Assembly: GCA_034005265.1 (NCBI GenBank)
Contig: JAVEVB010000034.1
Span: 1-32,000, forward strand
Length of the DNA: 32,000 nucleotides
Source: Lentimicrobium sp.
GTDB taxonomy: Bacteria; Bacteroidota; Bacteroidia; Bacteroidales; Lentimicrobiaceae
Direction: 5' to 3'
The notes below the pieces were generated by a model that did no database searches, was not told where the DNA came from, and saw only the letters and a program-made list of their open reading frames with translations. The position numbers and the translations under genes were made by a program. Shown here in pieces: positions 4,331 through 27,386 of the stretch (position 1 is the stretch's first letter; the number at the start of each line of letters is the position of its first letter).

Positions 4331-4352
4331 TTCAGCCCAATAAAACAATAAC

Positions 4353-5480: not shown

Positions 5481-6357
5481 ACATATTTATTTTAGCATTG
5501 TAATACCGCTCTTTAATAAGGGTAAAAGTATAAGTAGTACGATAAATTCAGTTTTAAATCAAACCTATAGTGATTTTGAATTAATTCTTGTAAACGATGG
5601 CTCAACGGATAATAGTGTAAATATCGTAGAAAGCTGCGATGACAAACGCATTCGATTAATACACCAAGAGAATAAAGGTGTTTCAGCGGCACGAAATAGA
5701 GGTATTCAAGAAGCTAAAAATGAGTGGATAGCTTTTTTAGATGCTGATGATCAATGGGACAATACATATTTAGAAAAAATGCAACAATTAATAATTGATT
5801 TTCCTCAAGCTTCCTTTTTAGGTTGTCAATTTGCACAAAAAGAAAGAGATAATGTCAGATTAGTCAATGGAGTTCATCAAGTTAGGGGTTATATTGAGAA
5901 TTATTTCCAGTTTGCGATTATAGCTCCTCTTGTACATTCATCTGCGGTAATTGTAAAAAAATCTTGTTTTGATGTTGTTGGCATATTTAATTCAAAATTT
6001 TCAAGGGGCGAAGATCTTGATATGTGGAATAGATTAGCAAAGAATTTCACCTTAGCATTTGAACCAACTTTACTAAGTTATTATATTCAAGATTCAGATA
6101 ATAGAGCATGTAAAAATATTCCTTCATTAGAAAAATTCTATTTAGCGCCTAATTTATTCAGACTCCCAAAATATGAGCAAAAGTATATGATTATACTTCT
6201 AAAGGGAGTCTTGTCTGAGTTGTTCTCTTCAAAACATTATTTGACTTTTATAAGGCTTAGCTTAAAAAATCACCTTTATTCGATAATTGCTTTTAAAGAT
6301 ATTATTCTTAGCAGGTTTACAAGAAAAATTATGACACCTGATAAACATCTGGTATAA
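5470..6357 (+). CDS. Family 2 glycosyltransferase
   Basis: FSIVIPLFNKGKSISSTINSVLNQTYSDFELILVNDGSTDNS and the FLDADDQW (DxD) motif are present. The ATG at 5470 overlaps the upstream stop by 11 nt. Confidence 0.85.
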   Translation: MEAKHIYFSIVIPLFNKGKSISSTINSVLNQTYSDFELILVNDGSTDNSVNIVESCDDKRIRLIHQENKGVSAARNRGIQEAKNEWIAFLDADDQWDNTYLEKMQQLIIDFPQASFLGCQFAQKERDNVRLVNGVHQVRGYIENYFQFAIIAPLVHSSAVIVKKSCFDVVGIFNSKFSRGEDLDMWNRLAKNFTLAFEPTLLSYYIQDSDNRACKNIPSLEKFYLAPNLFRLPKYEQKYMIILLKGVLSELFSSKHYLTFIRLSLKNHLYSIIAFKDIILSRFTRKIMTPDKHLV

Positions 6358-6501
6358 CAAACTAAGGATATTTACTGTTTATAGAAATTATTAATGATGT
6401 TTTTAAAGTATCTATAGTGAAGAATATTAAACAATGTCCAATTAAAATAAATGAAAAATTTCACTAAACTTGTTGGCGATAAATATTTTAAATAAAAGAA
6501 G

Positions 6502-7830
6502 ATGGATTTTTTAAAAATTGAGACTTTTTTTGACATTAATAATAATGAAGACAGGACGATTGAAGTTCTATCAGCGGTTTATCAAAATATTACTGTGTTA
6601 AAAGAAAAAGTTCGAAAAATCGGGGAAGGGATTCTAGATAACGAAAATATTATTAAAGGTAAAAAAATATTATTAAAACCCAACTGGGTCACACATGATC
6701 GTAAACCTGATGACGAATGGTCCTTACGAACACATGATGCTGTAATATTAGCCTTAGTAGAAATTCTAATTGAGCAAAACCCAGCAAGTATCATTATTGG
6801 AGATGCTCCGATTCAAGGGTGTGACTGGAATAAAATGTTAAGTAAAAATTTTATAAACGATATTGAGGTATTAAAAGATAAATATAAAATCCCAATTGCT
6901 ATTAAAGATTTCCGACGCGTTACATTTAACCCCGTCCTAAATAATCCAATAAAAGATAGAAGGCCTTTGACTGATTATGTAATTTTTGATCTTGGTACAA
7001 ATAGTTTTCTTGATCCAATTAGCACTGAAAATAACATCTTCAGAGTTACCAACTATGATCCTGATCGTTTAGCCGAATCGCATAGGAAAGGAATTCATAA
7101 ATATTGTATAACAAAAGAATTATTTGAAGCCGATGTTGTTATTTCATTGCCTAAAGTAAAAACCCACCAGAAGACAGGTATAACTTGTGCTTTAAAAAAC
7201 ATTGTTGGCGTAAATGGTGATAAAGATTATCTCCCGCATCATCGCATAGGTGGAACTGGGTTTGGAGGAGATTGTTATCCCGGTAAAAATATTTTCAGGC
7301 TTTGGTCGGAGTACATTCTAGATATTGCAAACAGGCGCCAGGGAAGTGTATTTTATAAATTTTTTACATACTCTGCAGCAATTCTATGGAAACTGACCAA
7401 TCCTCAAAAAGAACATCATTTAGCTGCAGGCTGGCATGGAAATGATACAACCTGGCGAATGGTGTTAGATTTAAATAAAATCTCCATTTATGGCAAAGCA
7501 GATGGTACAATTTCTGACACTCCTCAAAGAAATTTATATAGTCTATGTGATGGGATAATTGGTGGCCAGGGCAATGGCCCTTTGGAACCTGAACCTCTGC
7601 CATTAGGTATTTTAAGCTTTACAAATCACAGCGGACTGAACGATATATGTATGGCAATTTTAATGGGATTTGATCATAAGAAAATAGCACTTCTAAGAAA
7701 TCAAAAGATTGAGTTCTCAAAAGGAGATTTTCCAATTAGCCTTAACGGCCATAGAATAACATTTGAAATGTTATCAAAATATGCAGTTGAAACCGTTCCT
7801 CCTCCGGGTTGGATAAATCATTTAAAATAA
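6502..7830 (+). CDS. DUF362 domain-containing protein
   Basis: KKILLKPNWV and SLPKVKTHQKTGITCALKNIVG match the DUF362 pattern as I remember it. Confidence 0.75.
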   Translation: MDFLKIETFFDINNNEDRTIEVLSAVYQNITVLKEKVRKIGEGILDNENIIKGKKILLKPNWVTHDRKPDDEWSLRTHDAVILALVEILIEQNPASIIIGDAPIQGCDWNKMLSKNFINDIEVLKDKYKIPIAIKDFRRVTFNPVLNNPIKDRRPLTDYVIFDLGTNSFLDPISTENNIFRVTNYDPDRLAESHRKGIHKYCITKELFEADVVISLPKVKTHQKTGITCALKNIVGVNGDKDYLPHHRIGGTGFGGDCYPGKNIFRLWSEYILDIANRRQGSVFYKFFTYSAAILWKLTNPQKEHHLAAGWHGNDTTWRMVLDLNKISIYGKADGTISDTPQRNLYSLCDGIIGGQGNGPLEPEPLPLGILSFTNHSGLNDICMAILMGFDHKKIALLRNQKIEFSKGDFPISLNGHRITFEMLSKYAVETVPPPGWINHLK

Positions 7831-7833
7831 ATT

Positions 7834-8844
7834 ATGATTGCAATCCATAATAAAAAAAATTCTTTCAGTGAATTGTGGATAGATTATTGTTCTAAAAATA
7901 ATATTCCCTATAAAACAGTTAACTGTTATCAATCCAATATTATATCTCAATTGAGTGATTGTGATGCATTAATGTGGCATCATCATCATGGTGATTACAA
8001 AGATAATATTTTAGCAAAACAACTTTTATTTTCGCTACAGCATGCTGGAGTAGTGGTTTTCCCGGATTTTAATACAAACTGGCATTTTGATGATAAAGTC
8101 GGTCAAAAGTATTTGTTTGAATCGATTGGTGCACCCTCAGTTCCGTCATTTGTATTTTACGATAAAGAAGATGCATTCTCATGGGTTAGAACGACTAATT
8201 ATCCAAAAGTCTTTAAATTAAGAGGTGGAGCTGGTAGTGCAAATGTTAAACTTGTAAATAATCAAACCCAAGCCATATTATTGGTAAGAAAAGCATTTGG
8301 GAAAGGATTCCCTGCATTCGACCGATGGTCATATTGTAAGGATCGTTGTGCGAAATTTTTAAATGGCAGTGATACACTGGTCGGTGCCCTAAAAGGAATA
8401 GGAAGATTGTTTGTGCCAGTAAAAAACATTCATCTGTTACACCACGAAAAGGGATATATTTACTTTCAGGATTTCATCCCTAATAATGAATCAGATACCC
8501 GTGTAATTATTATTGGCGGAAAAGCATTTGCGATAAAGAGATTGGTCCGCAAGAATGATTTTAGAGCGTCTGGTAGTGGTTCGATTATTCATAAAAATGA
8601 TGAGATAGATATTCGATGTGTAAAGATTGCTTTTGAAACATCTGAAAAATTAAAATCACAATGCATTGCATATGACTTTATATTTAATCACGAAAATAGT
8701 CCTCTCATTGTAGAAATTAGTTATGGATTTTCACCTGCTGGCTATTCAAATTGTCCAGGATATTGGGATAGAAATCTTCTTTGGCATGAAGGCGCGTTTA
8801 ATCCATATGGTTGGATGGTTGAAATGATATTAAGCAATAAATAA
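7834..8844 (+). CDS. ATP-grasp fold protein (putative carboxylate-amine ligase)
   Basis: YPKVFKLRGGAGSANVKLV, YFQDFIPNNESDTRVIIIGGKAFAIKR and FRASGSGS fit the RimK-like ATP-grasp layout. The start lies 4 nt after the DUF362 stop. Confidence 0.75.
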   Translation: MIAIHNKKNSFSELWIDYCSKNNIPYKTVNCYQSNIISQLSDCDALMWHHHHGDYKDNILAKQLLFSLQHAGVVVFPDFNTNWHFDDKVGQKYLFESIGAPSVPSFVFYDKEDAFSWVRTTNYPKVFKLRGGAGSANVKLVNNQTQAILLVRKAFGKGFPAFDRWSYCKDRCAKFLNGSDTLVGALKGIGRLFVPVKNIHLLHHEKGYIYFQDFIPNNESDTRVIIIGGKAFAIKRLVRKNDFRASGSGSIIHKNDEIDIRCVKIAFETSEKLKSQCIAYDFIFNHENSPLIVEISYGFSPAGYSNCPGYWDRNLLWHEGAFNPYGWMVEMILSNK

Positions 8845-8851
8845 AGAATTA

Positions 8852-10039
8852 ATGAAGCTATCCAAAATTCAACGCATTGCGCTCTACATCTTTTTATTTT
8901 CCATCAATTTTGAAGTATGGGCTCCATCTGGTATAGCTCTTTCTACTTCAAAAATTACAGGACTAATCTATTTTGCTACTATTCTTCCGAATTATAAATA
9001 TTTTTTCAAAGCAGGGTACATCAGACATTTATTAACGCCCATGTGGTTATTGTTTGGACTACTAACCGTTGTTAGTCTTATCAATATAAATTCAGTGAGC
9101 TACTCATTCTTCGATTTTTCATTATTTCAAAACATGTTGCTATTTTGGTTATTGCTTAATCATGAAAGAAAAGACCCTGGCATATTGGCTAAAGGTATGC
9201 TGGCTTTCGCCATGGGTTCTATTGTTCTTGCTGCTTTGTATTACTTTAAAATAGGCATTGCATATGAAGGAGGCCGGGTAACCATATTTGGAGACAATGC
9301 CAATACTGTTGGCATAAGAATGAGCGTATCAATCTTTATTTTAGCATTATATATTTTAAAAAACAGTATAGGAATGGGGAAATTTCGCTACTTACTTATT
9401 GTTCCCATATTTCCTATGGTTATGCTACTGGCTGAAACAGGTTCCAGGGTAGCATTTATCGCTTTTGTTCTACAATTTATTGTGATAGTTTTATTCAATA
9501 AATCAGGACGATTCAGTTTGAAATTATTTTTAATAATTGCCGGCTCAATAATTGGATATTTCACCTGGACCTATTTTATGGAAATAGATGTTTTACGAAT
9601 CCGACTTACCCAATCATTACAAGACCGTGACCTTGCAGGACGAGACCTCATATGGTCCAAGGTAATCCAAGTAATAAAGAGTTCTCCAATTTTTGGTGTA
9701 GGAAAGACTGGTTATGCCTCATACATGAGTGATGCTTACGGTTCAGTTTCCAGTCCACACAATGTAATCCTTGAGATATTAGCTTACACCGGCTTAATTG
9801 GCTTGTATTTATATTTAAATTTCTTGTTTAAGATTATTCGCATTGCCTATGCAAGCTTTAAAATTAACAAGGATTTATTGCCATTGCTTTTATTTATCCC
9901 ATTTTTGGGTTTAATGTTTAGCGGTCAACTTTTGGTAGTTAAGATTGGATGGGTTATTCTTGCCTTTGCTGGATCAAAAATATTTTCAACACATCCTATG
10001 TATATAAAAAGAAATGAAAATCCTCTGCGTAATAGATAG
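8852..10039 (+). CDS. wzy: O-antigen polymerase / O-antigen ligase-like membrane protein (Wzy family)
   Basis: There are about 10 predicted TM segments and a periplasmic loop with SPHNVILEILAYTGLIG, typical of the Wzy_C family. Confidence 0.75.
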   Translation: MKLSKIQRIALYIFLFSINFEVWAPSGIALSTSKITGLIYFATILPNYKYFFKAGYIRHLLTPMWLLFGLLTVVSLININSVSYSFFDFSLFQNMLLFWLLLNHERKDPGILAKGMLAFAMGSIVLAALYYFKIGIAYEGGRVTIFGDNANTVGIRMSVSIFILALYILKNSIGMGKFRYLLIVPIFPMVMLLAETGSRVAFIAFVLQFIVIVLFNKSGRFSLKLFLIIAGSIIGYFTWTYFMEIDVLRIRLTQSLQDRDLAGRDLIWSKVIQVIKSSPIFGVGKTGYASYMSDAYGSVSSPHNVILEILAYTGLIGLYLYLNFLFKIIRIAYASFKINKDLLPLLLFIPFLGLMFSGQLLVVKIGWVILAFAGSKIFSTHPMYIKRNENPLRNR

Positions 10040-11099
10040 TCTAGGTTCAGGTGGTGCACAGCGGCAATTGGTGAACCTTGCAGTTGGCTTCAAAGAAAAA
10101 GGGCACGATGTTTCTTTTTTGGTTTACCATAGCATCAACTTTTTTAAAAGTTCATTGGTTGAACATGAGATACCTGTTAAAGAAATCATAGAGCCCAACT
10201 ACCTGAAACGTTTGTTTAAAATGCGACGGTTTATTCGCAGGGGTAAATATGATTCTGTATTTTCATTCCTTGAAGCATCCAATTTTATATGCGAAATCTC
10301 GGGATTACCTTGGCGCAAATGGAAATTGGTTGTAGGGGAACGGAGTGCAAATCCGGCAATCTTAAAAACTTTTAAACTTCGTGCATTTCGCTGGTTTCAT
10401 GTTTTTGCAGATTATATAGTAGCCAATTCGTACGAAAACCTCAAAATAGTGCAAAAAATTAACCCTTTGCTTTCTTCCAGGAAGTGTCATGTTATTTATA
10501 ATATTGTTGACTTTGAAAAGTGGCAAATCATTTCACAATCCAAACACTATGAAAACAGTGAATTCAGAATAGTCGTAGCAGCAAGTCACCGTTATTTGAA
10601 AAACCTGAGTGGATTGGTTGAAGCAGTGAATTTACTTCCACCACAGAAAAAAAACCGATTAAGAATTGATTGGTATGGGAACAATACACACGATACCTCA
10701 AGAATAGAAGTACAAAAGAAAATTAAAGAATATAAGTTAAAAGACGTTTTCACCTTCTTAGAACCTATTCTGTCGATACAACAAAAAATGCAAGAGGCCG
10801 ATGCAGTAGGTTTGTTCAGTTTTTATGAAGGCTTGCCAAATGTTATATGTGAGGCAATGGCTATAGGTAAACCTATCATTGCAACGGCAGTCTCTGATAT
10901 TCCGCTTTTAATATCCAATAAAAATTTGTTGTCAAATCCCCATGATCCATCTTCTATTTCTCAGAGTTTAAAATATTTATTAACTATGAAAAGCGACGAA
11001 TTAATTAATGAAGGAAGAATCAATCAAGAAATCGCTTTACATATTTTTAATAAGGAAACTATATGCGAATTATACTTAAGCCTCCTAACACATGTCTAA
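10014..11099 (+). CDS. Family 4 (GT-B) glycosyltransferase
   Basis: MKILCVIDSLGSGGAQRQLVNLA and the EGLPNVICEAMAIGKPIIAT (E-x7-E region) are present. It overlaps wzy by 26 nt. Confidence 0.85.
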   Translation: MKILCVIDSLGSGGAQRQLVNLAVGFKEKGHDVSFLVYHSINFFKSSLVEHEIPVKEIIEPNYLKRLFKMRRFIRRGKYDSVFSFLEASNFICEISGLPWRKWKLVVGERSANPAILKTFKLRAFRWFHVFADYIVANSYENLKIVQKINPLLSSRKCHVIYNIVDFEKWQIISQSKHYENSEFRIVVAASHRYLKNLSGLVEAVNLLPPQKKNRLRIDWYGNNTHDTSRIEVQKKIKEYKLKDVFTFLEPILSIQQKMQEADAVGLFSFYEGLPNVICEAMAIGKPIIATAVSDIPLLISNKNLLSNPHDPSSISQSLKYLLTMKSDELINEGRINQEIALHIFNKETICELYLSLLTHV

Positions 11100-11577
11100 C
11101 ATCAGAGTAAGATTATATAAAGGCAATTTCAAGGGATTGTTCTTCATCTGTTTTTTTAGGATTTCTAACTTCTTTACAGTGAATATGTTTAGAAGAATAA
11201 TAGGACTCCCTATACGATTATTTTATAAGCTATTTGTTAATTGGCTGTTGGGAATTGATATTTCAGACACAACCCAAATTGGTAAAAACCTTATTGTCTG
11301 GCATGGTATAGGCCTTATAGTACACCCTAAGACAATAATTGGGGATAACGTTGTACTGAGACACAACACAACAATAGGTAGTTCTAAGCATAATGGAGGT
11401 GCTCCGATACTTTGTAATGGTTGTGATATAGGCTCAAATAGTGTTATTCTTGGTGAAATAATTGTGGGAGAAAATTCTAAAATTGGAGCTGGATCTGTTG
11501 TAACTAAAAGTGTGCCACCCTATTCAGTTGTTGTCGGAAATCCTGGTAAAGTTATTAAATATTTGAGAAATGACTAA
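11092..11577 (+). CDS. Hexapeptide-repeat (LbH) O-acetyltransferase, serine-acetyltransferase-like
   Basis: Left-handed beta-helix repeats are seen (IGDNVVLRHNTTIG, IGSNSVILGEIIVGENSKIGAGSVV). It has an ATGTCTAA start/stop overlap with the upstream gene. Confidence 0.8.
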   Translation: MSNIRVRLYKGNFKGLFFICFFRISNFFTVNMFRRIIGLPIRLFYKLFVNWLLGIDISDTTQIGKNLIVWHGIGLIVHPKTIIGDNVVLRHNTTIGSSKHNGGAPILCNGCDIGSNSVILGEIIVGENSKIGAGSVVTKSVPPYSVVVGNPGKVIKYLRND

Positions 11578-12670
11578 GGTATTATTAGTAGCACCACTAA
11601 ATGACAAAGGAAATGGTGGCATTCTATCATGGACAAGGAGATTTGTCAAGACCTTCCATTCAGAAGATTTTGAAATCGTTCCAATAAAGTCATCTTCGAG
11701 AAGTAGCAATAATGCTATCAATCCGTTATTTATTAAACGGCTTATTAATGGGTTGTTAGATTTGAGAGATACTCGTAAAAATTTGATTAATGCCATAAAA
11801 CAAGATGAAATCCATATTATGCACATAACTACCAGTGGCGGTTTAGGCACCTTTAGGGATTATGTGCTTGCAAAAGTATGCAAGAGAAAGGGTATAAGAA
11901 CTATTATGCACTGCCATTACGGTAGTATGACTGAGAGCCTTAAGAGAAATGATATTTTGGGGTATTTTCTTTCTAGAACTTTAAAATTGTATGACCACAT
12001 TTGGGTTTTGGATATGAGAACATTAACAACCTTAAAATCAATTCATGAGCTAAGGGACAAAGCCTTTCTGACTCCTAATTCTATTGAAGTTCACAAGGAA
12101 TTTGACACTAATTTAAAAAGTTTTACAAAAATAGCTTTTATTGGAAATCTTGTCCCATCCAAAGGCTTATTTGAATTAGTTGAGGCTATAACAAAAGTAA
12201 AGTACAATATTGAATTAACTATAATCGGACCAGGCACAAAAAAAGTAATAGATAGAATTAAAGAAATTGCAGGAGAGTATATTAATAAGCGTATTAAAAT
12301 TATGGGGGTTATGCCCAATAATGAAGCAGTAAGTTTTTTGAATTCTGTTGATATACTAGCTCTGCCAACTTATTATCCAGCTGAAGCTTTCCCAATGTCA
12401 ATTCTTGAAGCAATGAGTTTAGGAAAGTTGGTAATTTCAACACCTCGTGCGGCAATTCAAGATATGCTTACTTTATTGAATGGTGATACATGTGGAATTC
12501 TAGTCCGAGAAAAATCAGTTGATGACATTGTTATTGCAATTGAATGGTGTATCACAAACCCAAGGGATGCCAATAATATTTGTGAAAAAGCATACAAGAA
12601 AGTATATGAAACCTATCGAACAGATATTGTATATAAACTTTATGAAGAAAATTATAGAAAGTTAATTTAA
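11570..12670 (+). CDS. Family 4 glycosyltransferase
   Basis: The PAEAFPMSILEAMSLGKLVISTP motif is present. It has an ATGACTAA start/stop overlap with the upstream gene. Confidence 0.8.
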   Translation: MTKVLLVAPLNDKGNGGILSWTRRFVKTFHSEDFEIVPIKSSSRSSNNAINPLFIKRLINGLLDLRDTRKNLINAIKQDEIHIMHITTSGGLGTFRDYVLAKVCKRKGIRTIMHCHYGSMTESLKRNDILGYFLSRTLKLYDHIWVLDMRTLTTLKSIHELRDKAFLTPNSIEVHKEFDTNLKSFTKIAFIGNLVPSKGLFELVEAITKVKYNIELTIIGPGTKKVIDRIKEIAGEYINKRIKIMGVMPNNEAVSFLNSVDILALPTYYPAEAFPMSILEAMSLGKLVISTPRAAIQDMLTLLNGDTCGILVREKSVDDIVIAIEWCITNPRDANNICEKAYKKVYETYRTDIVYKLYEENYRKLI

Positions 12671-12701
12671 AATGGCATGATGCTTTTCAGTATGCAAAAC
12701 C

Positions 12702-12709
12702 TATATTTG
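12702..12709 (+). promoter_or_regulatory. Candidate Bacteroidota -7 promoter element (TATATTTG = TAnnTTTG)
   Basis: It is an exact match to TAnnTTTG in the 107-bp gap where G+C content switches. Confidence 0.25.
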
Positions 12710-12756
12710 TTTGTCGTATCGGCCATACTATTCTATGAATATATATACTTGAATAT

Positions 12757-12764
12757 TATATTTG
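12757..12764 (+). promoter_or_regulatory. Candidate Bacteroidota -7 promoter element (TATATTTG)
   Basis: This second exact TAnnTTTG match ends 13 nt before the ATG at 12778. Confidence 0.3.
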
Positions 12765-12777
12765 TAATTGACTAAAC

Positions 12778-13986
12778 ATGAACATCCTCTTTCTCACCAT
12801 CTCCAATATCACCGACATCAATGAGCGCGGCATCTATACCGATCTGATGCGGCAGTTCAGGGATAAGGGGCATAAGGTGTATATTGTATCACCCACAGAG
12901 CGCAGGTATAAGCAACCCACAGCCCTGCGGCAGCAGGATGGAATCAGCCTGCTTAAAGTTAAGACGCTGAACCTGCAAAAGACCCATGTTGTAGAAAAGG
13001 GAATGGGTACCATTTTGTTGGAAAATAAATATTTAGCAGCAATAAAGAAGAATTTAAGTAAAGCAAAATTTGATTTGATTTTATATTCTACTCCGCCCAT
13101 TACCTTTGAGAAAGTAATCAGGTATATAAAGTCCCGGGACCATGCCTTTGCCTACCTGCTACTAAAAGATATTTTCCCTCAAAACGCGGTTGACCTGAAT
13201 ATGCTCAGTAAAGGCGGCCTTTTGCACCGTTATTTCCGGAAAAAGGAAAAAGCACTCTATGCCGCTTCGGATATTATCGGCTGTATGTCGCCTGCCAATG
13301 TGGAATATGTATGCAGGCACAATGCTGAAGTTATGCCTTCGAAAGTTGAAGTATGCCCCAACAGCATTACCCTTTCCAATGAAGCCGTTCTCACAGCAAC
13401 AGAACGCTTGTCCATAAGGTCGAAACACCAGCTGCCACCGGAAGATACCCTCTTTATTTATGGCGGCAATCTGGGCAAACCACAGGGTTTAGGCTTCCTG
13501 ATTGAGGTGCTGGAAGCGAACAAAAACCGAAAGGGAGCATATTTTGTTGTGGTGGGTTCGGGCACTGAGTTTCCCATGCTTCAAAAGTGGTTTGAAACAA
13601 ACAACCCAGCCAATGCCTTATTGTTAAAAGGCCTGCCCAAAGCCGAATACGATGATTTGGTCAAAGCCTGTGATGTAGGATTAATTTTACTCGACAGCAA
13701 ATTTACCATTCCCAATTACCCTTCCAGGCTACTTTCATATCTCGAAAACCGAATGCCGGTAATAGCAGCCACCGATATCAATACAGATATTGGGGCGATA
13801 GCAGAAGAAAATGGGTATGGGCTTAAATGCCTTTCAGGTGATATTAAAGCAATGAAAAAACATGTTCAGTTTTGTTGCGAAAATAAAGGGAGGATTGAAG
13901 AAATGGGGCAAAACGGGTATGATTTTCTTATAACAAATTATACGGTGCAGCATTCGTATGATATTATAATAAAGCATTTTATGTAG
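12778..13986 (+). CDS. Family 4 glycosyltransferase, WbuB-like (possible L-FucNAc-type transferase)
   Basis: MNILFLTISNITDINERGIYTDLMRQFRDKGHKVYIVSP resembles, from memory, GT4 enzymes that commonly follow fnlC. This is unverified. Confidence 0.8.
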   Translation: MNILFLTISNITDINERGIYTDLMRQFRDKGHKVYIVSPTERRYKQPTALRQQDGISLLKVKTLNLQKTHVVEKGMGTILLENKYLAAIKKNLSKAKFDLILYSTPPITFEKVIRYIKSRDHAFAYLLLKDIFPQNAVDLNMLSKGGLLHRYFRKKEKALYAASDIIGCMSPANVEYVCRHNAEVMPSKVEVCPNSITLSNEAVLTATERLSIRSKHQLPPEDTLFIYGGNLGKPQGLGFLIEVLEANKNRKGAYFVVVGSGTEFPMLQKWFETNNPANALLLKGLPKAEYDDLVKACDVGLILLDSKFTIPNYPSRLLSYLENRMPVIAATDINTDIGAIAEENGYGLKCLSGDIKAMKKHVQFCCENKGRIEEMGQNGYDFLITNYTVQHSYDIIIKHFM

Positions 13987-13997
13987 GTCGTAAATAA

Positions 13998-14422
13998 GGT
14001 TCACGCTGCGCCCGCCGCGAAAGAGTTCACGCTGCGCCCGCTGCGAAAAGGTTCACGCCACGCCCGCTGCGAGAAACAAAAGTTCACGCCACGCTCGCCG
14101 CGAGAAACAATACGCCGCGCCCGCCGCGAGAAACAATACGCCGCGTTCGCCGCGAGAAACAACACGCCGCGCCCGTTGCGAGAAACAATACGCTGCGCCC
14201 GCTGCGAGAAACAATACGCCACGTTCGCCGCGAGAAACAACACGCTGCGCCCGCCGCGAGAAACAACACGCTGCGCCCGTTGCGAGAAACAATACGCTGC
14301 GCCCGCTGCGAGAAACAATACGCTGCGCCCGCTGCGAGAAACAACACGCCACGTTCGCCGCGAGAAACAACACGCTGCGCCCGCCGCGAGAAACAATACG
14401 CCACGTCCACCGCGAGAAACAA
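13998..14422 (+). repeat. Tandem 26-nt array, consensus YACGCYRCGYYCGYYGCGAGAAACAA: 4 irregular GTTCACGC-type units followed by 12 perfectly phased units (14111-14422)
   Basis: Direct reading shows contiguous units with no spacers. The array ends 7 nt before the GxxExxY ATG. Confidence 0.97.
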
Positions 14423-14429
14423 ATCATCT

Positions 14430-14816
14430 ATGGAAAACAAACCCGAAAACACCATCGCCACCGCCATCCTTGATCAGGCATTTAAAATTCACACCGAATT
14501 AGGCCCCGGATTGCTTGAATCTGTTTACGAGCGTTGTCTTCAGTACGAACTCATCGAAGCAGGGTACACAGCTCAGACGCAACTCCCTGTTCCAATGAAT
14601 TACAAATCCATACGTTTTGAAGCCGGATTTCGTATTGATCTTTTGGTAAATGATATGGTACTGGTCGAGATTAAATCGGTAGAAACATTGGCACCGGTTC
14701 ATTTTGCACAAACGCTTACCTATTTGAAGATGAAAAACATCAAACTGGGATTGTTAATCAATTTCAATGTTAAATATCTGAAGAATGGCATTCATCGGGT
14801 AGCTAATAATTTATAA
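14430..14816 (+). CDS. GxxExxY protein (PD-(D/E)XK nuclease-like fold)
   Basis: ENTIATAILDQAFKIHTELGPGLLESVYERCLQYEL carries the G-L-L-E-S-V-Y signature, and LLVNDMVLVEIKSV carries the D..E.K-like motif. I chose the ATG at 14430 because the longer ORF runs into the repeat. Confidence 0.9.
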   Translation: MENKPENTIATAILDQAFKIHTELGPGLLESVYERCLQYELIEAGYTAQTQLPVPMNYKSIRFEAGFRIDLLVNDMVLVEIKSVETLAPVHFAQTLTYLKMKNIKLGLLINFNVKYLKNGIHRVANNL

Positions 14817-14821
14817 CTAAA

Positions 14822-14962
14822 CGGTTCACGCTTCGCTCGCCGCGAGAAAGGTTCACGCCGCGTTCGCTGCGAGAAAAGTTCACGCCGCGCTCGCCGCGAG
14901 AAAAAAAAGTTCACGCTGTACCCGCCGCGAGAAACAATACGCCGCGTTCGCCGCGAGAAACA
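14822..14962 (+). repeat. Second array of the same 26-nt family (5 units)
   Basis: It has the same 5'-to-3' polarity as the upstream array, with GTTCACGC-type units first and TACGC...GAGAAACAA units last. Confidence 0.9.
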
Positions 14963-14990
14963 ACAACCTACTCAATTTTTCACCCACCCA

Positions 14991-16222: not shown

Positions 16223-16864
16223 ATGGGTAGGATGAACAACAAACGCAAGTATCTGATCGCGGGCCTCTTGTCCGCATTTTTTATTTTTGGCATACTGTCG
16301 TTGCGGCAGGCGGGCAACTGGCTGGTTGTTTCCGATAAACCCATTCACGCCGATGCCCTGCTGGTGCTGATGGGTGGTGTGGAGGAACGTATTCCCCAGG
16401 CCATTGATTTGTACAAGGCGGGCTATGCGCCCCTGCTTCTTTTCCCGGACGATTATGAAGAAAACCCGCCCCTTATCCTGCCCAATGGCACAAAACTATC
16501 CAACGATGCCGCCAAAAGCAGGCACCTCAGCCGGCAGTATGGCGTACCCGACTCAGCCATCCGCATTGTTCAGGGGCCGGCATTGAATACACAGGCCGAA
16601 GCAGAGCTTATGGCAGGTTACCTTGAAGGTCATCCGGAAACGGATACCCTTATCCTGGTCAGTTCCTCCTACCATATGCGGAGGGCAAGCTTCATTTTCC
16701 GGAATGAATTTGCCTCAAAAGGGCTTGAAATTACCCTGATCAGCGTACCTTCGCGCTACAGCACGTTTAAGCCGGATAAATGGTGGAGATCAGGCACTTC
16801 ACGCAACATTGTTTTCTACGAATATTTAAAAATGGCTTATAACTTACTGTGGGACAGGTGGTGA
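16223..16864 (+). CDS. DUF218 / YdcF (ElyC-SanA-like) family membrane-anchored protein
   Basis: It has an N-terminal TM segment, LLVLMGG...AIDLYKAGYAP and LILVSSSYHMRRA. Confidence 0.75.
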   Translation: MGRMNNKRKYLIAGLLSAFFIFGILSLRQAGNWLVVSDKPIHADALLVLMGGVEERIPQAIDLYKAGYAPLLLFPDDYEENPPLILPNGTKLSNDAAKSRHLSRQYGVPDSAIRIVQGPALNTQAEAELMAGYLEGHPETDTLILVSSSYHMRRASFIFRNEFASKGLEITLISVPSRYSTFKPDKWWRSGTSRNIVFYEYLKMAYNLLWDRW

Positions 16865-16868
16865 AAAT

Positions 16869-16976
16869 GGTCTTTGGTCTTTGGTCTTTGGGGCGGAGGT
16901 GGTTGATGTTAGTTTTTCCCAGGATTTGTATAGCGATCTTAAGGCTTAAAGAGTCTTTAGTCTTTGGTCTTTGGGG
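16869..16976 (+). repeat. Two blocks of GGTCTTT heptamers (16869-16893, 16951-16976), each followed by GGGGCGG(A)GGTGGTTG
   Basis: Direct reading shows these are the reverse complement of the AAAGACC blocks downstream. Confidence 0.9.
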
Positions 16977-17071
16977 CGGTGGTTGGCAATTTGAGCCTCA
17001 GCCCAGGAAATAAACTTATTAACTTTTAGTTATGAAAGTTTTTTTAAAGCTTAATCTTCGTTCTAAAACAA

Positions 17072-17170
17072 CCAAAGACTAAAGACCAAAGACCAACACC
17101 CAAAGACCAAAGACTAGAACCACAACAAATGTTAGTTCTAACTTCTCATCATAAAACAACAACACCCAAA
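17072..17170 (+). repeat. AAAGACC/AAAGACT heptamer block (17072-17115) followed by copy 1 of a 53-bp direct repeat (17118-17170)
   Basis: The direct repeat aaccacaacaaatgttagttctaacttctcatcataaaacaacaacacccaaa recurs at 17641-17693 with one mismatch. Confidence 0.9.
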
Positions 17171-17180
17171 ACCCAACCCC

Positions 17181-17534
17181 ATGCGCGACTTCCGAAAACT
17201 AACCGTCTGGCAGAAATCAATAGAATTTGCAAAAGACATCTACCTTATTACAAAACAATTTCCGGACAAAGAGAGGTATGGACTGTGCAGTCAGTTACAA
17301 CGTGCAGCGGTCTCCATTCCATCCAATATAGCAGAAGGATCTGCCAGAAGAACATCAAATGATTTTGCACGTTTTCTGGATATTGCTTTAGGCTCAGCGT
17401 TTGAAGTGGAAACTCAACTAACCATTGCCCATCAAATAGCTTACCTGGATAGTGAAACCTTTCAAAAATTACTGGGAGAGCTTACTATCCTTCAAAAGCA
17501 AATCAATATGTTGCGAACAAAAATTCTTGACTAG
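17181..17534 (+). CDS. Four-helix-bundle protein ('23S rRNA intervening sequence protein' family)
   Basis: MRDFRKLTVWQKSIEFAKDIY...GLCSQLQRAAVSIPSNIAEGSAR...FLDIALGSAFEVETQL is the classic signature of this family. Confidence 0.9.
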   Translation: MRDFRKLTVWQKSIEFAKDIYLITKQFPDKERYGLCSQLQRAAVSIPSNIAEGSARRTSNDFARFLDIALGSAFEVETQLTIAHQIAYLDSETFQKLLGELTILQKQINMLRTKILD

Positions 17535-17565
17535 CTTATTATTTTAAAAAACGAGAAGAACAGCT

Positions 17566-17713
17566 CCAAAGACCAAAAGCCCAACAAATGTTAGTTTATA
17601 ATCTAATCTCAGTGCTTATAACACCAAAGACCAAAGACCCAACCACAACAAATGTTAGTTCTAACTTCCCATCATAAAACAACAACACCCAAAGACTAAA
17701 GACCAAAGACTAA
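17566..17713 (+). repeat. AAAGACC blocks (17566-17580, 17624-17640, 17688-17713) enclosing copy 2 of the 53-bp direct repeat (17641-17693)
   Basis: This comes from direct reading. A partial third copy of the direct-repeat core (caacaaatgttagtt) lies at about 17582-17596. Confidence 0.9.
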
Positions 17714-17776
17714 TTTGTGCAGAAATAGGCGGTCAAAGAAATTAGCGTAAATTCGCCGTTACAGCAAAAACAGAAA

Positions 17777-18808
17777 ATGCCCTTCATTACTTCACGTGAT
17801 CCTCTTTGGAAAAAATTACTGGCAAACACGCCCCACGATGTTTACCACCTTCCGGGATATGCCACCATTGAAGCAGGTTTGCTGAATGGAGAAGCCATTG
17901 CCTGGGTTCACCGCGAAGAGGGAAACACCTTCCTTATACCGCTGGTGAGCAGAACCATCAATGGCGGGCAGGAGTTCCGCGATCTGGTAAGCCCTTATGG
18001 TTATTCCGGCATGTTGACACTCAACAGCATACATGCCGATGAAGCCTCACATGCCTTATCGTTGTTCAACAAAGAAGCTGCCGCCAATGGCTATGTGAGC
18101 AGTTTCCTGCGACTGAACCCCCTGCTCAACTCATGGCAGTTGCCACAAACGGAAGCCTGGCGGCAGTGGTTTCACGGAGGCACGGTATCGGTAAATCTGA
18201 GTCAGCCGGTGGAGGAAATCCGGGACAGCTTTCACCAGAACCACCGCCGCAACCTGCAACGGCTGCATACCTCAGGATATACCGCATCCATCAACCAATG
18301 GGCTGAACTGCCCCATTTTATGAAGGCGTACCGCCAGACCATGCAGCGGCGACAAGCCCACCCCTATTATTTTTTCCCGGACAGTTATTTTCAGGCACTT
18401 CACCAGCTGCTTGGTGCGCGACTGGTATTCATCAGCGTAATGGATGCCGACGGTGAATTTGCTGCCGGCGGCTTGTTCACCCTGTTTGACAAAGTGATGC
18501 AGTACCATTTGGGAGCAACAACCAATAAACACCTGTACTTCAGCCCATCAAAGCTGATGATGGAAGCCGCCATAGAATATGGCATCGCCAACGGAGCCGA
18601 CCTGCTGCATCTGGGCGGAGGTTTGGGTGGCAGCACCACCGATGGCCTGTTCAGGTTTAAAAAAGGCTTCGCCGAAAAATACCATCCCTATACCAGCTTA
18701 CGGTTCATTCATTTGCCGGCGGTTTATGAAAAACTTAAACTCTCGCTCGGCAAAGGCTACAACCGAAACACCTATTTCCCTGAATACCGGATAATTGTGG
18801 AGGAGTGA
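17777..18808 (+). CDS. FemAB-like / GNAT (Acetyltransf_6-type) acyl- or aminoacyl-transferase
   Basis: The size, SPYGYSGML, YHLGAT and LLHLGGGLGGSTTDGLFRFKKGF resemble FemAB-related proteins found in EPS loci. This is motif-level recognition only. Confidence 0.6.
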   Translation: MPFITSRDPLWKKLLANTPHDVYHLPGYATIEAGLLNGEAIAWVHREEGNTFLIPLVSRTINGGQEFRDLVSPYGYSGMLTLNSIHADEASHALSLFNKEAAANGYVSSFLRLNPLLNSWQLPQTEAWRQWFHGGTVSVNLSQPVEEIRDSFHQNHRRNLQRLHTSGYTASINQWAELPHFMKAYRQTMQRRQAHPYYFFPDSYFQALHQLLGARLVFISVMDADGEFAAGGLFTLFDKVMQYHLGATTNKHLYFSPSKLMMEAAIEYGIANGADLLHLGGGLGGSTTDGLFRFKKGFAEKYHPYTSLRFIHLPAVYEKLKLSLGKGYNRNTYFPEYRIIVEE

Positions 18809-18884: not shown

Positions 18885-19028
18885 TTCGCGTAAATTCGCG
18901 TAATTAGCGGTTAAAAAAGCCTTAGCACTTGAAAACAATTAGCGTAAATCAGCGTAATTAGCGGTTAAAAAAACCTTCGCGGAAATGAGTAGTTGAAAAT
19001 AATTCGCGTAATTCGCGGTTAAATAACA
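18885..19028 (+). repeat. About 2.5 copies of a 55-64-nt unit built on TT(A/C)GCGTAAAT..GCGTAATTAGCGGTTAAAAAA
   Basis: This comes from direct reading. A 12-nt exact core (attagcgtaaat) also occurs at 17741-17752, upstream of the FemAB-like gene. Confidence 0.8.
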
Positions 19029-19726: not shown

Positions 19727-19776
19727 TTGAATCCTGAAAGTCCCGAGAGGAGGTACGACGATTCGGGACTGAATCC
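19727..19776 (+). repeat. Single copy of the 42-nt hairpin unit TGAATCCTGAAAGTCCCGAGAGGAGGYACGACGATTCGGGAY
   Basis: The stem is AGTCCCGA/TCGGGACT. The same unit is tandemly repeated at 21275-21400. Confidence 0.85.
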
Positions 19777-19903: not shown

Positions 19904-21160
19904 ATGAAAAGTGTTCATTATTATCCTAGGATTTGTGATAACGTATTGAGTAGAAAGCTGCAATTAACTGGCGCAACGCTGATAGTTGGTCCGAAATGGT
20001 GTGGAAAAACAGAAACTGCCCTGCAAGCATCCAGGAGTGTCATCTATATACAGTCTGATCCGCAATATAAAGAAACCGGAAAAATAATGCCTTCCTTGTT
20101 GTTAGAAGGTGAAACTCCCCGGTTAATAGACGAATGGCAAGAAGTTCCTGAATTGTGGAATGCTGTGCGACACAGTGTTGATCAAAGAAGAAAGCAGGGG
20201 CAGTTTATACTGACCGGTTCGGCTACGCCACATGATGAAGTGATGGCTCATTCCGGAATAGGTCGTATATCAAGAATACTGATGCGTCCAATGACACTTT
20301 TCGAGTCAAAAGAGAGCACCGGCACTGTTTCACTCAAAGCACTTTTTGATGGTAAACCAGAGATTGCAGCTGTAAGTTCGTTGGATATTCCCCAATTGGC
20401 ATACTCAATATGTCGTGGAGGATGGCCGGGAGCAGTAACATTACTGAATGGTGGAGAATCGCTTGCCCGTGAATATACCGATATGCTTGTTGAGGCAGAC
20501 ATTAGTCATCTGGATGGTATAGAACGGAACCCCTATCGCGTTCGGCAGGTTTTACGCTCTTTAGCACGCAATATATCCACCTTAACCACTGCCCGTACAA
20601 TTTTAGAGGATGTGAGAGCGAACGATTTAACAATCAATGAGCGAACACTCGAAAGCTATCTCAATGCAATGCGCCGTCTGTTTGTTGTGGAAGATGTACC
20701 TGCATGGTCACCCTCTCTCCGATCAAAAACAACGATTCGAAACTCTGATAAACGGCAGCTGGCAGATCCATCTATAGCAGCAGCTGTGATGAGGGTGGAT
20801 GTAAATGGTTTACTGCACGATTTGAATACTTTTGGTTTCTTGTTTGAATCGTTATGCACACGGGATGTGCGGGTGTATGCACAATCCAATGACGGGGAAA
20901 TATTTCATTACAGAGATAAAGATGAATTGGAAATTGACCTGATAATATCACTTAACGATGGCAGATGGGCAGGTATAGAGGTGAAACTTGGGGAGCACCA
21001 GGCCGATGAAGCAGCCGCTAATTTGATTCAATTAAAAAACAAAGTGGATACATCGCGTAACGGAGAACCAAGTTTTTTGATGGTTCTTACTGGTGGAAAA
21101 TTTGCCTACCAACGTACTGATGGAGTAATGGTAGTGCCATTGGCTTGTTTAAGAGACTAA
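19904..21160 (+). CDS. AAA+ ATPase with C-terminal DUF4143 (restriction-endonuclease-like) domain
   Basis: It has Walker A GPKWCGKT, FILTGSA, and a C-terminal half with the LLHDLNTFGFLFESLCTRDV...DKDELEIDLII pattern typical of ATP-binding/DUF4143 proteins. Confidence 0.85.
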   Translation: MKSVHYYPRICDNVLSRKLQLTGATLIVGPKWCGKTETALQASRSVIYIQSDPQYKETGKIMPSLLLEGETPRLIDEWQEVPELWNAVRHSVDQRRKQGQFILTGSATPHDEVMAHSGIGRISRILMRPMTLFESKESTGTVSLKALFDGKPEIAAVSSLDIPQLAYSICRGGWPGAVTLLNGGESLAREYTDMLVEADISHLDGIERNPYRVRQVLRSLARNISTLTTARTILEDVRANDLTINERTLESYLNAMRRLFVVEDVPAWSPSLRSKTTIRNSDKRQLADPSIAAAVMRVDVNGLLHDLNTFGFLFESLCTRDVRVYAQSNDGEIFHYRDKDELEIDLIISLNDGRWAGIEVKLGEHQADEAAANLIQLKNKVDTSRNGEPSFLMVLTGGKFAYQRTDGVMVVPLACLRD

Positions 21161-21268: not shown

Positions 21269-21274
21269 AATAGT

Positions 21275-21435
21275 TGAATCCTGAAAGTCCCGAGAGGAGG
21301 CACGACGATTCGGGATTGAATCCTGAAAGTCCCGAGAGGAGGCACGACGATTCGGGATTGAATCCTTAAATCCTTAAATCCCTATAGTCCCGAGAGCAAA
21401 GCGATTCGGGATTGAATCTTTGAATCTTTGAATCC
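21275..21435 (+). repeat. Array of the 42-nt hairpin unit: two exact-period copies (21275, 21317), a third start at 21359, a degenerate copy, and 8-mer tails
   Basis: Direct reading shows period 42. The degenerate copy is at about 21385-21418. The tails are CCTTAAAT x2 and GAATCTTT x2. The array ends 8 nt before the aminotransferase ATG. Confidence 0.9.
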
Positions 21436-25541: not shown

Positions 25542-25569
25542 GGATTTCAGATTTCAGATTGCAGTTGCA
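25542..25569 (+). repeat. GATTTCA-type heptamers immediately 3' of the stop codon
   Basis: The sequence ggatttcagatttcagattgcagttgca has a near-identical motif at 27324-27345. Confidence 0.7.
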
Positions 25570-26867: not shown

Positions 26868-27320
26868 ATGACCCCTTCCGATATTTCAAAAGGATCTCCC
26901 GATCAGGCCCTTAATGCCTTCAAATCAGGTTATAACTGCGCCCAGTCTGTGGTTAAGGCGTATGCCGAAGTATTTGGGTTTGATGAAGATCAGGCCTTAG
27001 CCTTGTCCAGTGGATTTGGGGGAGGTATGGGCGGCATGCAGGGAGCCTGCGGCGCGGTTACCGGTGCCTACATGGTGTTGGGCATGTTCTGTGCTGCAAA
27101 ATACAAGGACAATCATGAGCGTAAGGCATGCTCCGGGGCTTTTGTTCGTGAGTTTCACCGACAGTTCACAGCTATGCATCAAACCGATGAGTGCCGTGTT
27201 CTACTATGCCAGGACAGTTCGGTAAAGGCCGGGGAACGGGCGAAACTGCATCTGTCGGTGTGCGATGGCTATATTGTTGATGCAGTAGAAATTATTAATG
27301 GCTTGTTGGAGGCGTATTGA
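26868..27320 (+). CDS. C_GCAxxG_C_C family protein
   Basis: The spaced-Cys pattern of the family is present: GYNCAQSVVKAY, GGGMGGMQGACGAVTGAYMVLG, ECRVLLC and VCDGYI. Confidence 0.8.
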   Translation: MTPSDISKGSPDQALNAFKSGYNCAQSVVKAYAEVFGFDEDQALALSSGFGGGMGGMQGACGAVTGAYMVLGMFCAAKYKDNHERKACSGAFVREFHRQFTAMHQTDECRVLLCQDSSVKAGERAKLHLSVCDGYIVDAVEIINGLLEAY

Positions 27321-27386
27321 TTTCGGATTTCAGATTTCGGATTAGAGAATTCGGAAGTCAGATGTTTGAAGTCAGAAATCAGAAAT
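27321..27386 (+). repeat. Low-complexity heptamer-like tract (GATTTCR, then AGTCAGA/AATCAGA) starting at the first base after the stop
   Basis: Direct reading gives tttcggatttcagatttcggattagag...gaagtcagaaatcagaaat. Confidence 0.7.

Follow-up and report, generated by a model that had tools for sequence, protein, structure and literature searches.

A four-helix-bundle gene bracketed by complementary heptamer arms in a Lentimicrobium polysaccharide operon: a probable IVS-type cassette within an mRNA

How does a gene of a family known from insertions in ribosomal RNA come to sit inside a protein-coding operon, and is it set apart from the message around it? The question is raised by positions 16865-17716 of a 32,000-nt stretch of Lentimicrobium sp. 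DNA (contig JAVEVB010000034.1, positions 1 to 32,000; hereafter the window). Here a small four-helix-bundle (4HB) gene at 17181-17534 is preceded by GGTCTTT heptamers and followed by their reverse complement. An earlier note, made from the letters of the sequence, had likened this arrangement to the intervening sequences (IVSs) of 23S rRNA, with the open reading frame (ORF) held in the loop of a long stem. The reading we favour, with a probability of about 0.6, takes 16865-17716 to be a gene cassette of the IVS type that lies in an mRNA operon, is looped out and acts in the transcript. The parts of this locus described below lie on the + strand.

The 117-residue product of 17181-17534 belongs to the 23S_rRNA_IVP family. 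Residues 5-109 match PF05635 (E 2.2e-41, 140.8 bits, cut-off 33.8) and the protein also matches TIGR02436 (E 1.5e-38, 131.4 bits, cut-off 24); with both profiles above cut-off, the four-helix-bundle assignment of the earlier note is confirmed. The closest solved structure is XCC0516 (PDB 2GSC, E 5e-28), described as a homopentamer (PMC4990558). Weak matches were seen to the bAvd family PF22296 (23.8 bits, cut-off 40) and to NF033474 (23.8 bits, cut-off 80). No reverse transcriptase was found among annotated ORFs of at least 100 aa in the window, nor was a template/variable repeat pair seen. Membership in a diversity-generating retroelement was therefore rejected on the sub-threshold Avd scores and the lack of a reverse transcriptase among those ORFs. 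PADLOC gave no defence-system match for the 4HB protein. A sigma-70 promoter scan, using a consensus that does not apply to Bacteroidota, gave no matches, and no terminator-like site was found on the + strand of the cassette.

The repeats around the gene form an ordered set of arms. The stop codon of the upstream DUF218/YdcF-like gene (16223-16864; PF02698, E 2.5e-15) ends 4 nt before the first of them. The outer 5' arm, G1 (16864-16893), carries three perfect GGTCTTT units at 16869-16889 followed by GGGG. The inner 5' arm, G2 (16951-16976), is an 89% direct copy of the G1 unit and reads AGTCTTT/AGTCTTT/GGTCTTT at 16952-16972, again followed by GGGG. Blocks of the reverse-complement type, AAAGACC, then occur on both sides of the gene. 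Between the 5' arms and the ORF lies a variable-number internal array of about six units (17071-17116), an alternative local partner for both G1 and G2. Downstream are the inner 3' arm a1 (CCAAAGACCAAAGACCC, 17623-17640) and the outer 3' arm a2 (CCCAAAGACTAAAGACCAAAGACTAA, 17686-17716), with its AAAGACC-type block at 17688-17716. We found one further, degenerate AAAGACC block, a0, at 17563-17584, which the earlier note had not listed; all the blocks that it had listed are where it placed them. The pairings that it proposed between them also hold in direct sequence comparison. Positions 16952-16975 are complementary to 17688-17711 over 24 nt (92%) and 16953-16974 to 17072-17093 over 22 nt (91%), while 16869-16884 is the perfect 16-nt complement of 17624-17639, in a match that extends to 20 nt at 95%. 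A two-unit probe, GGTCTTTGGTCTTT, searched on both strands with at most one mismatch, matched nine times against 0.02 expected, and all nine matches fall within 16869-17711. Tandem Repeats Finder likewise reports arrays of 7-nt period at the cassette, which places them among heptameric simple-sequence repeats resembling the short tandemly repeated repetitive (STRR) sequences.

Folding supports a long-range stem around the gene. The 861-nt RNA 16860-17720 has a minimum free energy (MFE) of -206 kcal/mol (z = -3.7). Its outer helix, 29 bp between G1 (16864-16893) and a2 (17686-17716), has a probability of 0.99 and is present in both the MFE and the centroid structures. In this predicted fold the outer stem encloses the ORF, as the terminal stem of an IVS does, so the stable stem with the gene in its loop that the earlier note had anticipated was recovered. 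The partner of G2 is less settled: 16960-16973 forms a 14-bp helix with a1 in the MFE structure, and in the ensemble the pairing probability of G2 is 0.38 with 17625-17638 and 0.23 with the internal array. Folds in which the bracket was forbidden were 12.5 kcal/mol worse. The 266 nt of 16860-17125 folded alone form a nested hairpin between the G arms and the internal AAAGACC array (-92.4 kcal/mol, z = -5.5), and transcripts truncated before about 17600 all keep the local helices G1:17099-17122 and G2:17071-17087. In these models thermodynamics favours the bracket and kinetics may favour the local hairpin.

The arrangement is not peculiar to this locus. A scan of GTDB representative genomes with the 4HB protein returned 80 loci at 42-60% identity. 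Most are from Bacteroidota, and the other carriers include Acidimicrobiaceae, Pyrinomonadaceae, Acutalibacteraceae, Balneolaceae, Rickettsiales, bacteria of the candidate phyla radiation (CPR) and an archaeon. The test was run on the 72 loci in which the gene has 350 nt of sequence to either side. To score inverted flanks, the upstream flank was matched without gaps to the reverse-complemented downstream flank and the best match was taken, with a threshold of 13 or more. This score was reached at 45 of 72 4HB loci (62%) compared to 10 of 202 neighbouring ORFs in the same loci (5%; Mann-Whitney p = 9e-18) and 5 of 216 permuted upstream/downstream pairs (2%; Mann-Whitney p = 4e-23), and at 50 of the 72 loci the score lay above all 20 shuffles. 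A check of other 4HB genes for inverted flanks, as the earlier note had suggested, thus came out in its favour. An RNAduplex comparison of the 350-nt flanks (about -130 kcal/mol) was discarded, as it reflected whole-flank pairing with many interior loops, and was replaced by tests at the level of the arms.

The arms found in this way consist of units of 5-9 nt in short tandem arrays, with a different unit at every locus (for example TTAGACG, CCAGATG, GAGTACT, GTTCACA and GACACAA). In motif maps the canonical layout is one arm just 5' of the gene and one just 3' of it. Most loci have this bracketing pair only; in a minority that includes the window and L009, a Saprospiraceae metagenome-assembled genome (MAG) with the same heptamer as the window, an additional A/C array separates the 5' arm from the ATG. 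The 45 cassettes above threshold are 429-700 nt long (median 499) and have a median arm length of 26 nt; in 39 of them the arms pair together in the MFE structure. They are also fitted closely into their host operons. Of 72 upstream neighbours, 70 share the strand of the 4HB gene, as do 58 of 66 downstream neighbours. The median distance is 7.5 nt from the upstream stop codon to the start of the 5' arm, and 17 nt from the end of the 3' arm to the next ATG. The 5' arm shows a chirality bias, having more G than C in 36 of 45 loci (p = 7e-5). Ten of the fetched loci, including CPR and archaeal ones, were compared with Rfam and none proved to be embedded in rRNA; with no rRNA-embedded control among them, the IVS comparison rests on the published work (PMC4990558). 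A visual check of 14 loci showed no obvious target-site duplication outside the arms. As a separate observation, the 4HB gene of a Verrucomicrobiia MAG lies about 100 nt downstream of a tRNA gene (L021, 2823-2894), another stable-RNA context.

If the arms are kept for their complementarity, they should change together. Ten groups of loci have both flanking genes in common, and one of these groups spans Flavobacteriia, Sphingobacteriia, Cytophagia and Saprospiria. Such orthologous positions across genera and classes imply old, vertically inherited insertions. Within orthologous groups the complementarity of a locus's own arms (mean 15.3) exceeded that of arms combined across loci (10.1; p = 5e-6). 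RNAalifold recovered a terminal stem of 21 pairs from six orthologous Flavobacterium cassettes, with UA/AU and GC/AU swaps recurring at the period of the array. With that stem fixed, 95.8% of cells pair, compared to 86.7% after shuffling (0 of 500 shuffles reached the observed value) and 23-54% when the partner was slid along; the covariation score was 0.267 compared to 0.127 for shuffled alignments (0 of 500). A second orthologous group gave a terminal stem of 14 pairs. Where paralogues lie a few kb apart on one contig, their arms are unrelated (scores of 12-16 within a copy and 7-9 between copies), so that they lack the shared terminal repeats of a transposon or miniature inverted-repeat transposable element (MITE). 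These data establish the geometry of the cassettes, their enrichment across the family, the co-evolution of the arms, the co-orientation with the operon and the thermodynamic feasibility of the stem. We regard it as very probable that the bracket is a selected base-pairing feature. The IVS-like geometry that the earlier note proposed for this mRNA operon is thus supported by the fold, by inverted flanks throughout the family and by covariation among orthologues.

We also compared the cassette between strains. It is present in an independent assembly that is 100% identical over 6.1 kb (L001) and, in near-identical form, in two strain variants (L002 and L003), and is therefore not an assembly artefact. 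All 354 nt of the ORF are the same in the window and in L002/L003, and 3-4 differences fall in the repeats and leader around it. The opening 100 nt or so of the FemAB-like coding sequence that follows are likewise near-identical, whereas in the region compared (17071-18305) this coding sequence is about 9% divergent from 17878 onward (Fisher p = 4e-11). Since this breakpoint lies 50-100 nt inside that coding sequence and not at the edge of the cassette, we rejected the idea that the cassette is a recently transferred unit, and attribute the pattern to ordinary recombination mosaicism. The upstream heptamer block is far less constant: the window has about six units, compared to at least 44 in L002, an approximately 96% identical strain whose contig ends inside the array (L002, 1-312). 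This hypervariable AAAGACC array probably breaks short-read assemblies.

The earlier note had further pointed to a direct duplication flanking the gene. The repeat is present as described, with 53 nt and one mismatch (98% identity) between 17118-17170, the A/C-rich leader of the 4HB gene, and 17641-17693, and BLAST extends it to about 76 nt at 93% (17095-17170 and 17620-17693). It belongs to a higher-order repeat with a period of about 64 nt, each unit of which joins an AAAGACC block to a spacer of 45-53 nt. The unit occurs once 5' of the ORF and two to three times 3' of it, the first downstream unit opening with a0, and it varies in copy number between strains. L009 is built with the same higher-order arrangement. 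In L003 the two 53-nt copies read identical, and the counterpart of copy 1 is 100% identical to the window's 17641-17693. The description of the repeat as a module boundary is therefore fair. Its description as an insertion footprint is not: we rejected a target-site origin because the repeat is a unit of the 64-nt-period array, lies inside the arms and is far too long. Nor is a duplicated junction a hallmark of the family, as direct flank repeats are far less enriched than inverted ones (12 of 72 4HB loci compared to 14 of 202 neighbouring ORFs). We conclude that the duplication is a lineage-specific, unstable repeat structure, and that recombination between the direct copies could delete the gene.

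A relative without the cassette shows what the spacer looks like when the gene is absent. A metagenome scan with the FemAB-like protein returned a single locus, L084, from a related species (77% aa identity), which has the same operon without the 4HB gene and without a DUF4143 ATPase gene found further downstream in the window. In L084, 164 unrelated bases replace the counterpart of window 16865-17740. Homology stops at the stop codon of the DUF218 gene and resumes in the conserved leader of about 36 nt (17741-17776) ahead of the FemAB-like ATG, so that the start of this leader at 17741 marks the right-hand limit of the cassette-specific segment. At 77% aa identity L084 is too diverged to set the insertion junctions to the base.

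We propose the following mechanism. A presumably promoter-less PF05635 4HB gene, co-directional with a polysaccharide operon, would be transcribed by read-through together with the G-rich tandem heptamers 5' of it and their reverse complement 3' of it. In the read-through transcript a 29-bp outer stem between G1 and a2 would enclose an inner stem of about 14 bp between G2 and a1. These nested stems would hold the ORF in a loop, and the stop codon of the upstream gene would meet the leader of the downstream gene at the stem base. The long double-stranded stem would most likely be a substrate for RNase III, by analogy with ORF-bearing 23S rRNA IVSs, and cleavage would free the 4HB message and separate the flanking operon message. 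The sequence of the arms could drift, grow or shrink by slippage while the two arms remain complementary, and we suggest that each locus has a private repeat unit because its arms are free to drift as long as complementarity is kept. The duplicated higher-order unit of this locus would offer both a competing local hairpin and a substrate for recombinational deletion of the gene. That the pairing would occur in RNA rather than in DNA, and that RNase III cutting and a benefit would follow, is argued from precedent; we give cleavage of the stem by RNase III slightly less than an even chance. In favour of the RNA level are the co-orientation with the operon, the placement of the arms between the neighbouring stop and start codons, the lack of a terminator-like site in the cassette, the excess of G over C in the 5' arm and the rRNA precedent.

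Several observations weigh against this mechanism. Mismatches between arms show no excess of G:U (24, compared to 29 A:C), and sense and antisense folds are equally stable (24 of 45 cassettes); therefore, the computed data do not prove selection at the level of sense-strand RNA. No arms are detectable at about 38% of loci, among them all members of some orthologous groups (L026, L047 and L065), so the stem is not essential for the gene. Cutting the operon mRNA could harm expression of the downstream gene. At this locus in particular, a growing transcript would, according to the truncated folds, form the hairpin between the G arms and the internal array first, and that internal array is greatly expanded in L002.

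The same lack of a G:U versus A:C asymmetry and of a difference between sense and antisense folds would also fit an element that worked as DNA, with its arms as foldback-type terminal inverted repeats of a mobile or recombining cassette and any RNA pairing incidental. Template switching or gene conversion, together with slippage, would then keep the arms alike, and they would act as recombination sites or as sites for structure-specific recognition. This account draws further on the absence of the cassette, arms included, from the orthologous spacer of L084, on the variable-number nature of the arrays, on the other repeat-bracketed cargo in the same operon and the different cargo that L084 holds between the same TTGAATC-type arrays (see below), and on the near identity of the cassette between strains whose neighbouring gene differs by 9%. 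A transposon-remnant origin has also long been suggested for IVSs (PMC4990558). However, the strain breakpoint falls within the next coding sequence, no transposase or recombinase is associated with the cassette in the window, and arms private to each copy, even between paralogues a few kb apart, leave no common recognition sequence. Orthologous insertion positions across genera, and in one case across Bacteroidota classes, point to old vertical inheritance and not to frequent movement. The orientation nearly always follows the host operon (70 of 72), and the arms adjoin the neighbouring stop and start codons. We consider a DNA-level element unlikely.

A little less likely again is that the GGTCTTT arms and 17071-17116 form only a local hairpin, an intergenic RNA stabiliser or attenuator after the DUF218 gene, in which case the ORF would never be looped out and the downstream AAAGACC blocks would be by-products of unit duplication. 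The stability of 16860-17125 on its own and the persistence of the local helices in truncated transcripts fit this account, as do the internal A/C arrays of L009 and a few other loci. A gene-free hairpin of inverted heptamer arrays elsewhere in the window (27319-27386) provides a parallel. At equilibrium, however, the bracket is preferred by the 12.5 kcal/mol given above, with its outer helix at p 0.99, and most loci of the family have the bracketing pair with no internal array. The nested order G1, G2 ... a1, a2 is moreover what a duplicated bracketing stem predicts. Finally, the window is rich in other tandem arrays (CAATCAC, CACCAAT, a 26-mer, a 42-mer and GATTTCA), and the complementary blocks might be chance or generic simple-sequence DNA with no specific meaning. 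The GGTCTTT/AAAGACC unit is confined to this locus, with nine matches where 0.02 are expected, and family-wide enrichment and covariation cannot arise by chance, so we give this explanation almost no credence. The looped-out cassette in the transcript remains the reading that we favour.

The cassette is one of several in its operon. The + strand from 1519 to 22622 forms one polysaccharide-biosynthesis operon encoding an epimerase, a flippase, a pyruvyl transferase, glycosyltransferases, Wzy, a sugar transferase and PglD-like, DUF218, FemAB-like, exosortase and DegT proteins. The gene directly downstream of the cassette (17777-18808) encodes the FemAB-like/GNAT acyltransferase (PF13480, PF02388). 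Four accessory genes are embedded in this operon, each between repeats of its own kind: a RhuM-like gene, the 4HB gene with its GGTCTTT/AAAGACC heptamers, a GxxExxY/PDDEXK_3 gene and the DUF4143 ATPase gene. Rfam detected no known RNA family in the window and no rRNA anywhere in it.

Two further features of the operon were observed. Positions 3000-13000, spanning the flippase, pyruvyl transferase, GT2, Wzy and GT1 genes, have a G+C content of 29-35% compared to 43-52% in the rest of the window, and this block has the look of a serotype-specific segment of the polysaccharide locus that has been exchanged horizontally. The motif TTAGCGTAAATTCGC occurs at 17742-17756, 18885-18899 and 18939-18953, in leaders or spacers that precede the FemAB-like and exosortase genes, with a conserved counterpart in L084 (2963-2977). 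Its statistics are weak (4 matches compared to 1.1 expected at up to three mismatches), and it may be a putative internal promoter or regulatory site.

The GxxExxY/PDDEXK_3 gene (14430-14816; region 14002-14963) lies between direct 26-nt arrays of 16 and about 5 copies with no inverted pair, and these arrays create long spurious ORFs on both strands (14001-14502). A scan of viral contigs with the single PDDEXK_3 protein found nothing, and a two-sequence alignment gave five loci (L085-L089). Among six GxxExxY loci, three have strong inverted arms (L041, L088 and L089) and two have strong direct repeats (L085 and L087). The inverted tandem-repeat arms of L041 (1149-1550) match perfectly over 20 nt. 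This small sample of six loci suggests that GxxExxY cassettes follow the same bracketing rule.

The RhuM-like gene (243-1103; PADLOC candidate PDC-S05, E 2e-121) lies between CAATCAC/CACCAAT arrays in the same orientation, with at least 30 copies at 1-214 and 58 at 1143-1547. The second array crosses the annotated ATG (1519) of the UDP-GlcNAc 2-epimerase gene, so that its first 10 or so codons are repeat units and the true start may be further downstream. The DUF4143/AAA_14 ATPase gene (19904-21160; candidate PDC-S01) is flanked by copies of a 42-nt hairpin-containing unit (19727-19768 and 21274-21434) and by TTGAATC-type octamer arrays. In L084 the exosortase-DegT spacer (4721-5170) holds a truncated RhuM-like ORF between similar TTGAATC-type arrays. 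With different cargo in the same spacer in the two species, this spacer behaves as a cassette exchange site. Outside the operon, GATTTCA/GATTTCG arrays directly follow the stop codons of the DUF1684 gene (25543-25564) and the C_GCAxxG_C_C gene (27319-27386). Past the latter array, a short GAAATCA block complementary to it lies between convergent genes, and the two make up the gene-free hairpin mentioned above.

A broader interpretation, which we hold tentatively and at somewhat less than even odds, is that 4HB genes, and probably GxxExxY/PDDEXK_3 genes too, are widespread hitchhiker cassettes that loop out of operon transcripts by private, co-evolving stems, with rRNA IVSs being the subset that landed in rRNA. 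RNase III would then be the sequence-independent host factor that makes such insertions tolerable, and the cassettes would amount to protein-coding intervening sequences of mRNAs. If this is true, it would provide a natural origin for rRNA IVSs, which has been unexplained since about 1990, as one landing site of a much larger self-bracketed family, and this origin would be directly testable in cultivable Flavobacterium species. It would also describe a general way for selfish or accessory genes to occupy essential operons without breaking them, and would explain the private repeat sequence of each element. The design suggests a compact, sequence-independent insulator for synthetic operons. For annotation, it should be noted that a tandem array beside such a gene can pass for a CRISPR array or give rise, on translation, to spurious ORF calls. 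The 23S_rRNA_IVP family has been listed as associated with CRISPR arrays (PMC10910872), which the flanking tandem arrays could explain.

Several known systems share individual features with the cassette. In the openly readable full-text literature we found no prior description of complementary tandem-repeat arms bracketing 4HB genes in protein-coding operons. Foldback and MITE-like elements are likewise small with complementary ends, and the ends of eukaryotic foldback elements are built of short tandem repeats. Unlike these elements, the 4HB copies have no end sequence in common, are strongly biased in orientation and occupy orthologous positions. RNase III processing stems are also known in polycistronic mRNAs, namely in phage T7 early mRNAs, rpsO-pnp and lambda sib. 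Like these, a long intramolecular duplex in the operon transcript would be a sequence-independent RNase III substrate; the known stems, however, are local hairpins between cistrons, whereas the cassette stem encloses a whole extra gene. Avd of diversity-generating retroelements has a homologous four-helix-bundle fold, but the 4HB protein scores below both curated cut-offs. Intergenic heptamer repeats have been described as the STRR sequences of cyanobacteria and the TAACTGA repeats of Beggiatoaceae, Cyanobacteria and Bacteroidetes (PMC4679880), and the GGGAATC repeats of Xanthomonas occur as 70-75 convergent pairs that could form stem-loops (PMC4692102). The cassette arms resemble all of these in their 7-nt units, intergenic position, orientation with respect to genes and variable copy number. 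TAACTGA and GGGAATC repeats, however, use one genome-wide unit per organism and are not linked in those papers to the 4HB family or to bracketing of an ORF, whereas each 4HB cassette has a private unit and what is conserved is complementarity across the gene.

The closest likeness is to the ORF-bearing 23S rRNA IVSs of Coxiella burnetii, Leptospira, Brucella and the Xanthomonas-type S23p, which also hold a PF05635 ORF in the loop; 23S_rRNA_IVP ORFs have in addition been reported in CPR rRNA insertions. In Coxiella, RNase III excises an IVS that carries an ORF of this family and is closed by a 28-bp terminal stem; its 5' arm contains tandem GACAGAT heptamers in strain-variable number, with the 5' cut at the first repeat, and its ORF is reported to be decaying (PMC4990558). 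Both the rRNA IVSs and the mRNA-operon cassettes have terminal inverted repeats, a stem of about 26-29 bp around the ORF and a size of about 430-760 nt. As in Coxiella, the window's cassette has tandem heptamers with strain-variable copy number, and as in 23S rRNA IVSs generally it lies inside a longer host transcript, presumably with no promoter of its own. In contrast to the decaying Coxiella ORF, the ORF of the window is intact and identical across strains. At about 850 nt the window element is also longer, its arms are duplicated and it has an additional internal array, and its excision by RNase III would be an extension of the published precedent to this cassette. Its position sets it apart most clearly, as the genes on either side of it encode the DUF218 and FemAB-like proteins of an mRNA operon, and it is not in helix 25 or 45 of a 23S rRNA gene. 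Because location inside rRNA is what defines an IVS, this element should be classed not as an IVS but as an IVS-like cassette in an mRNA operon.

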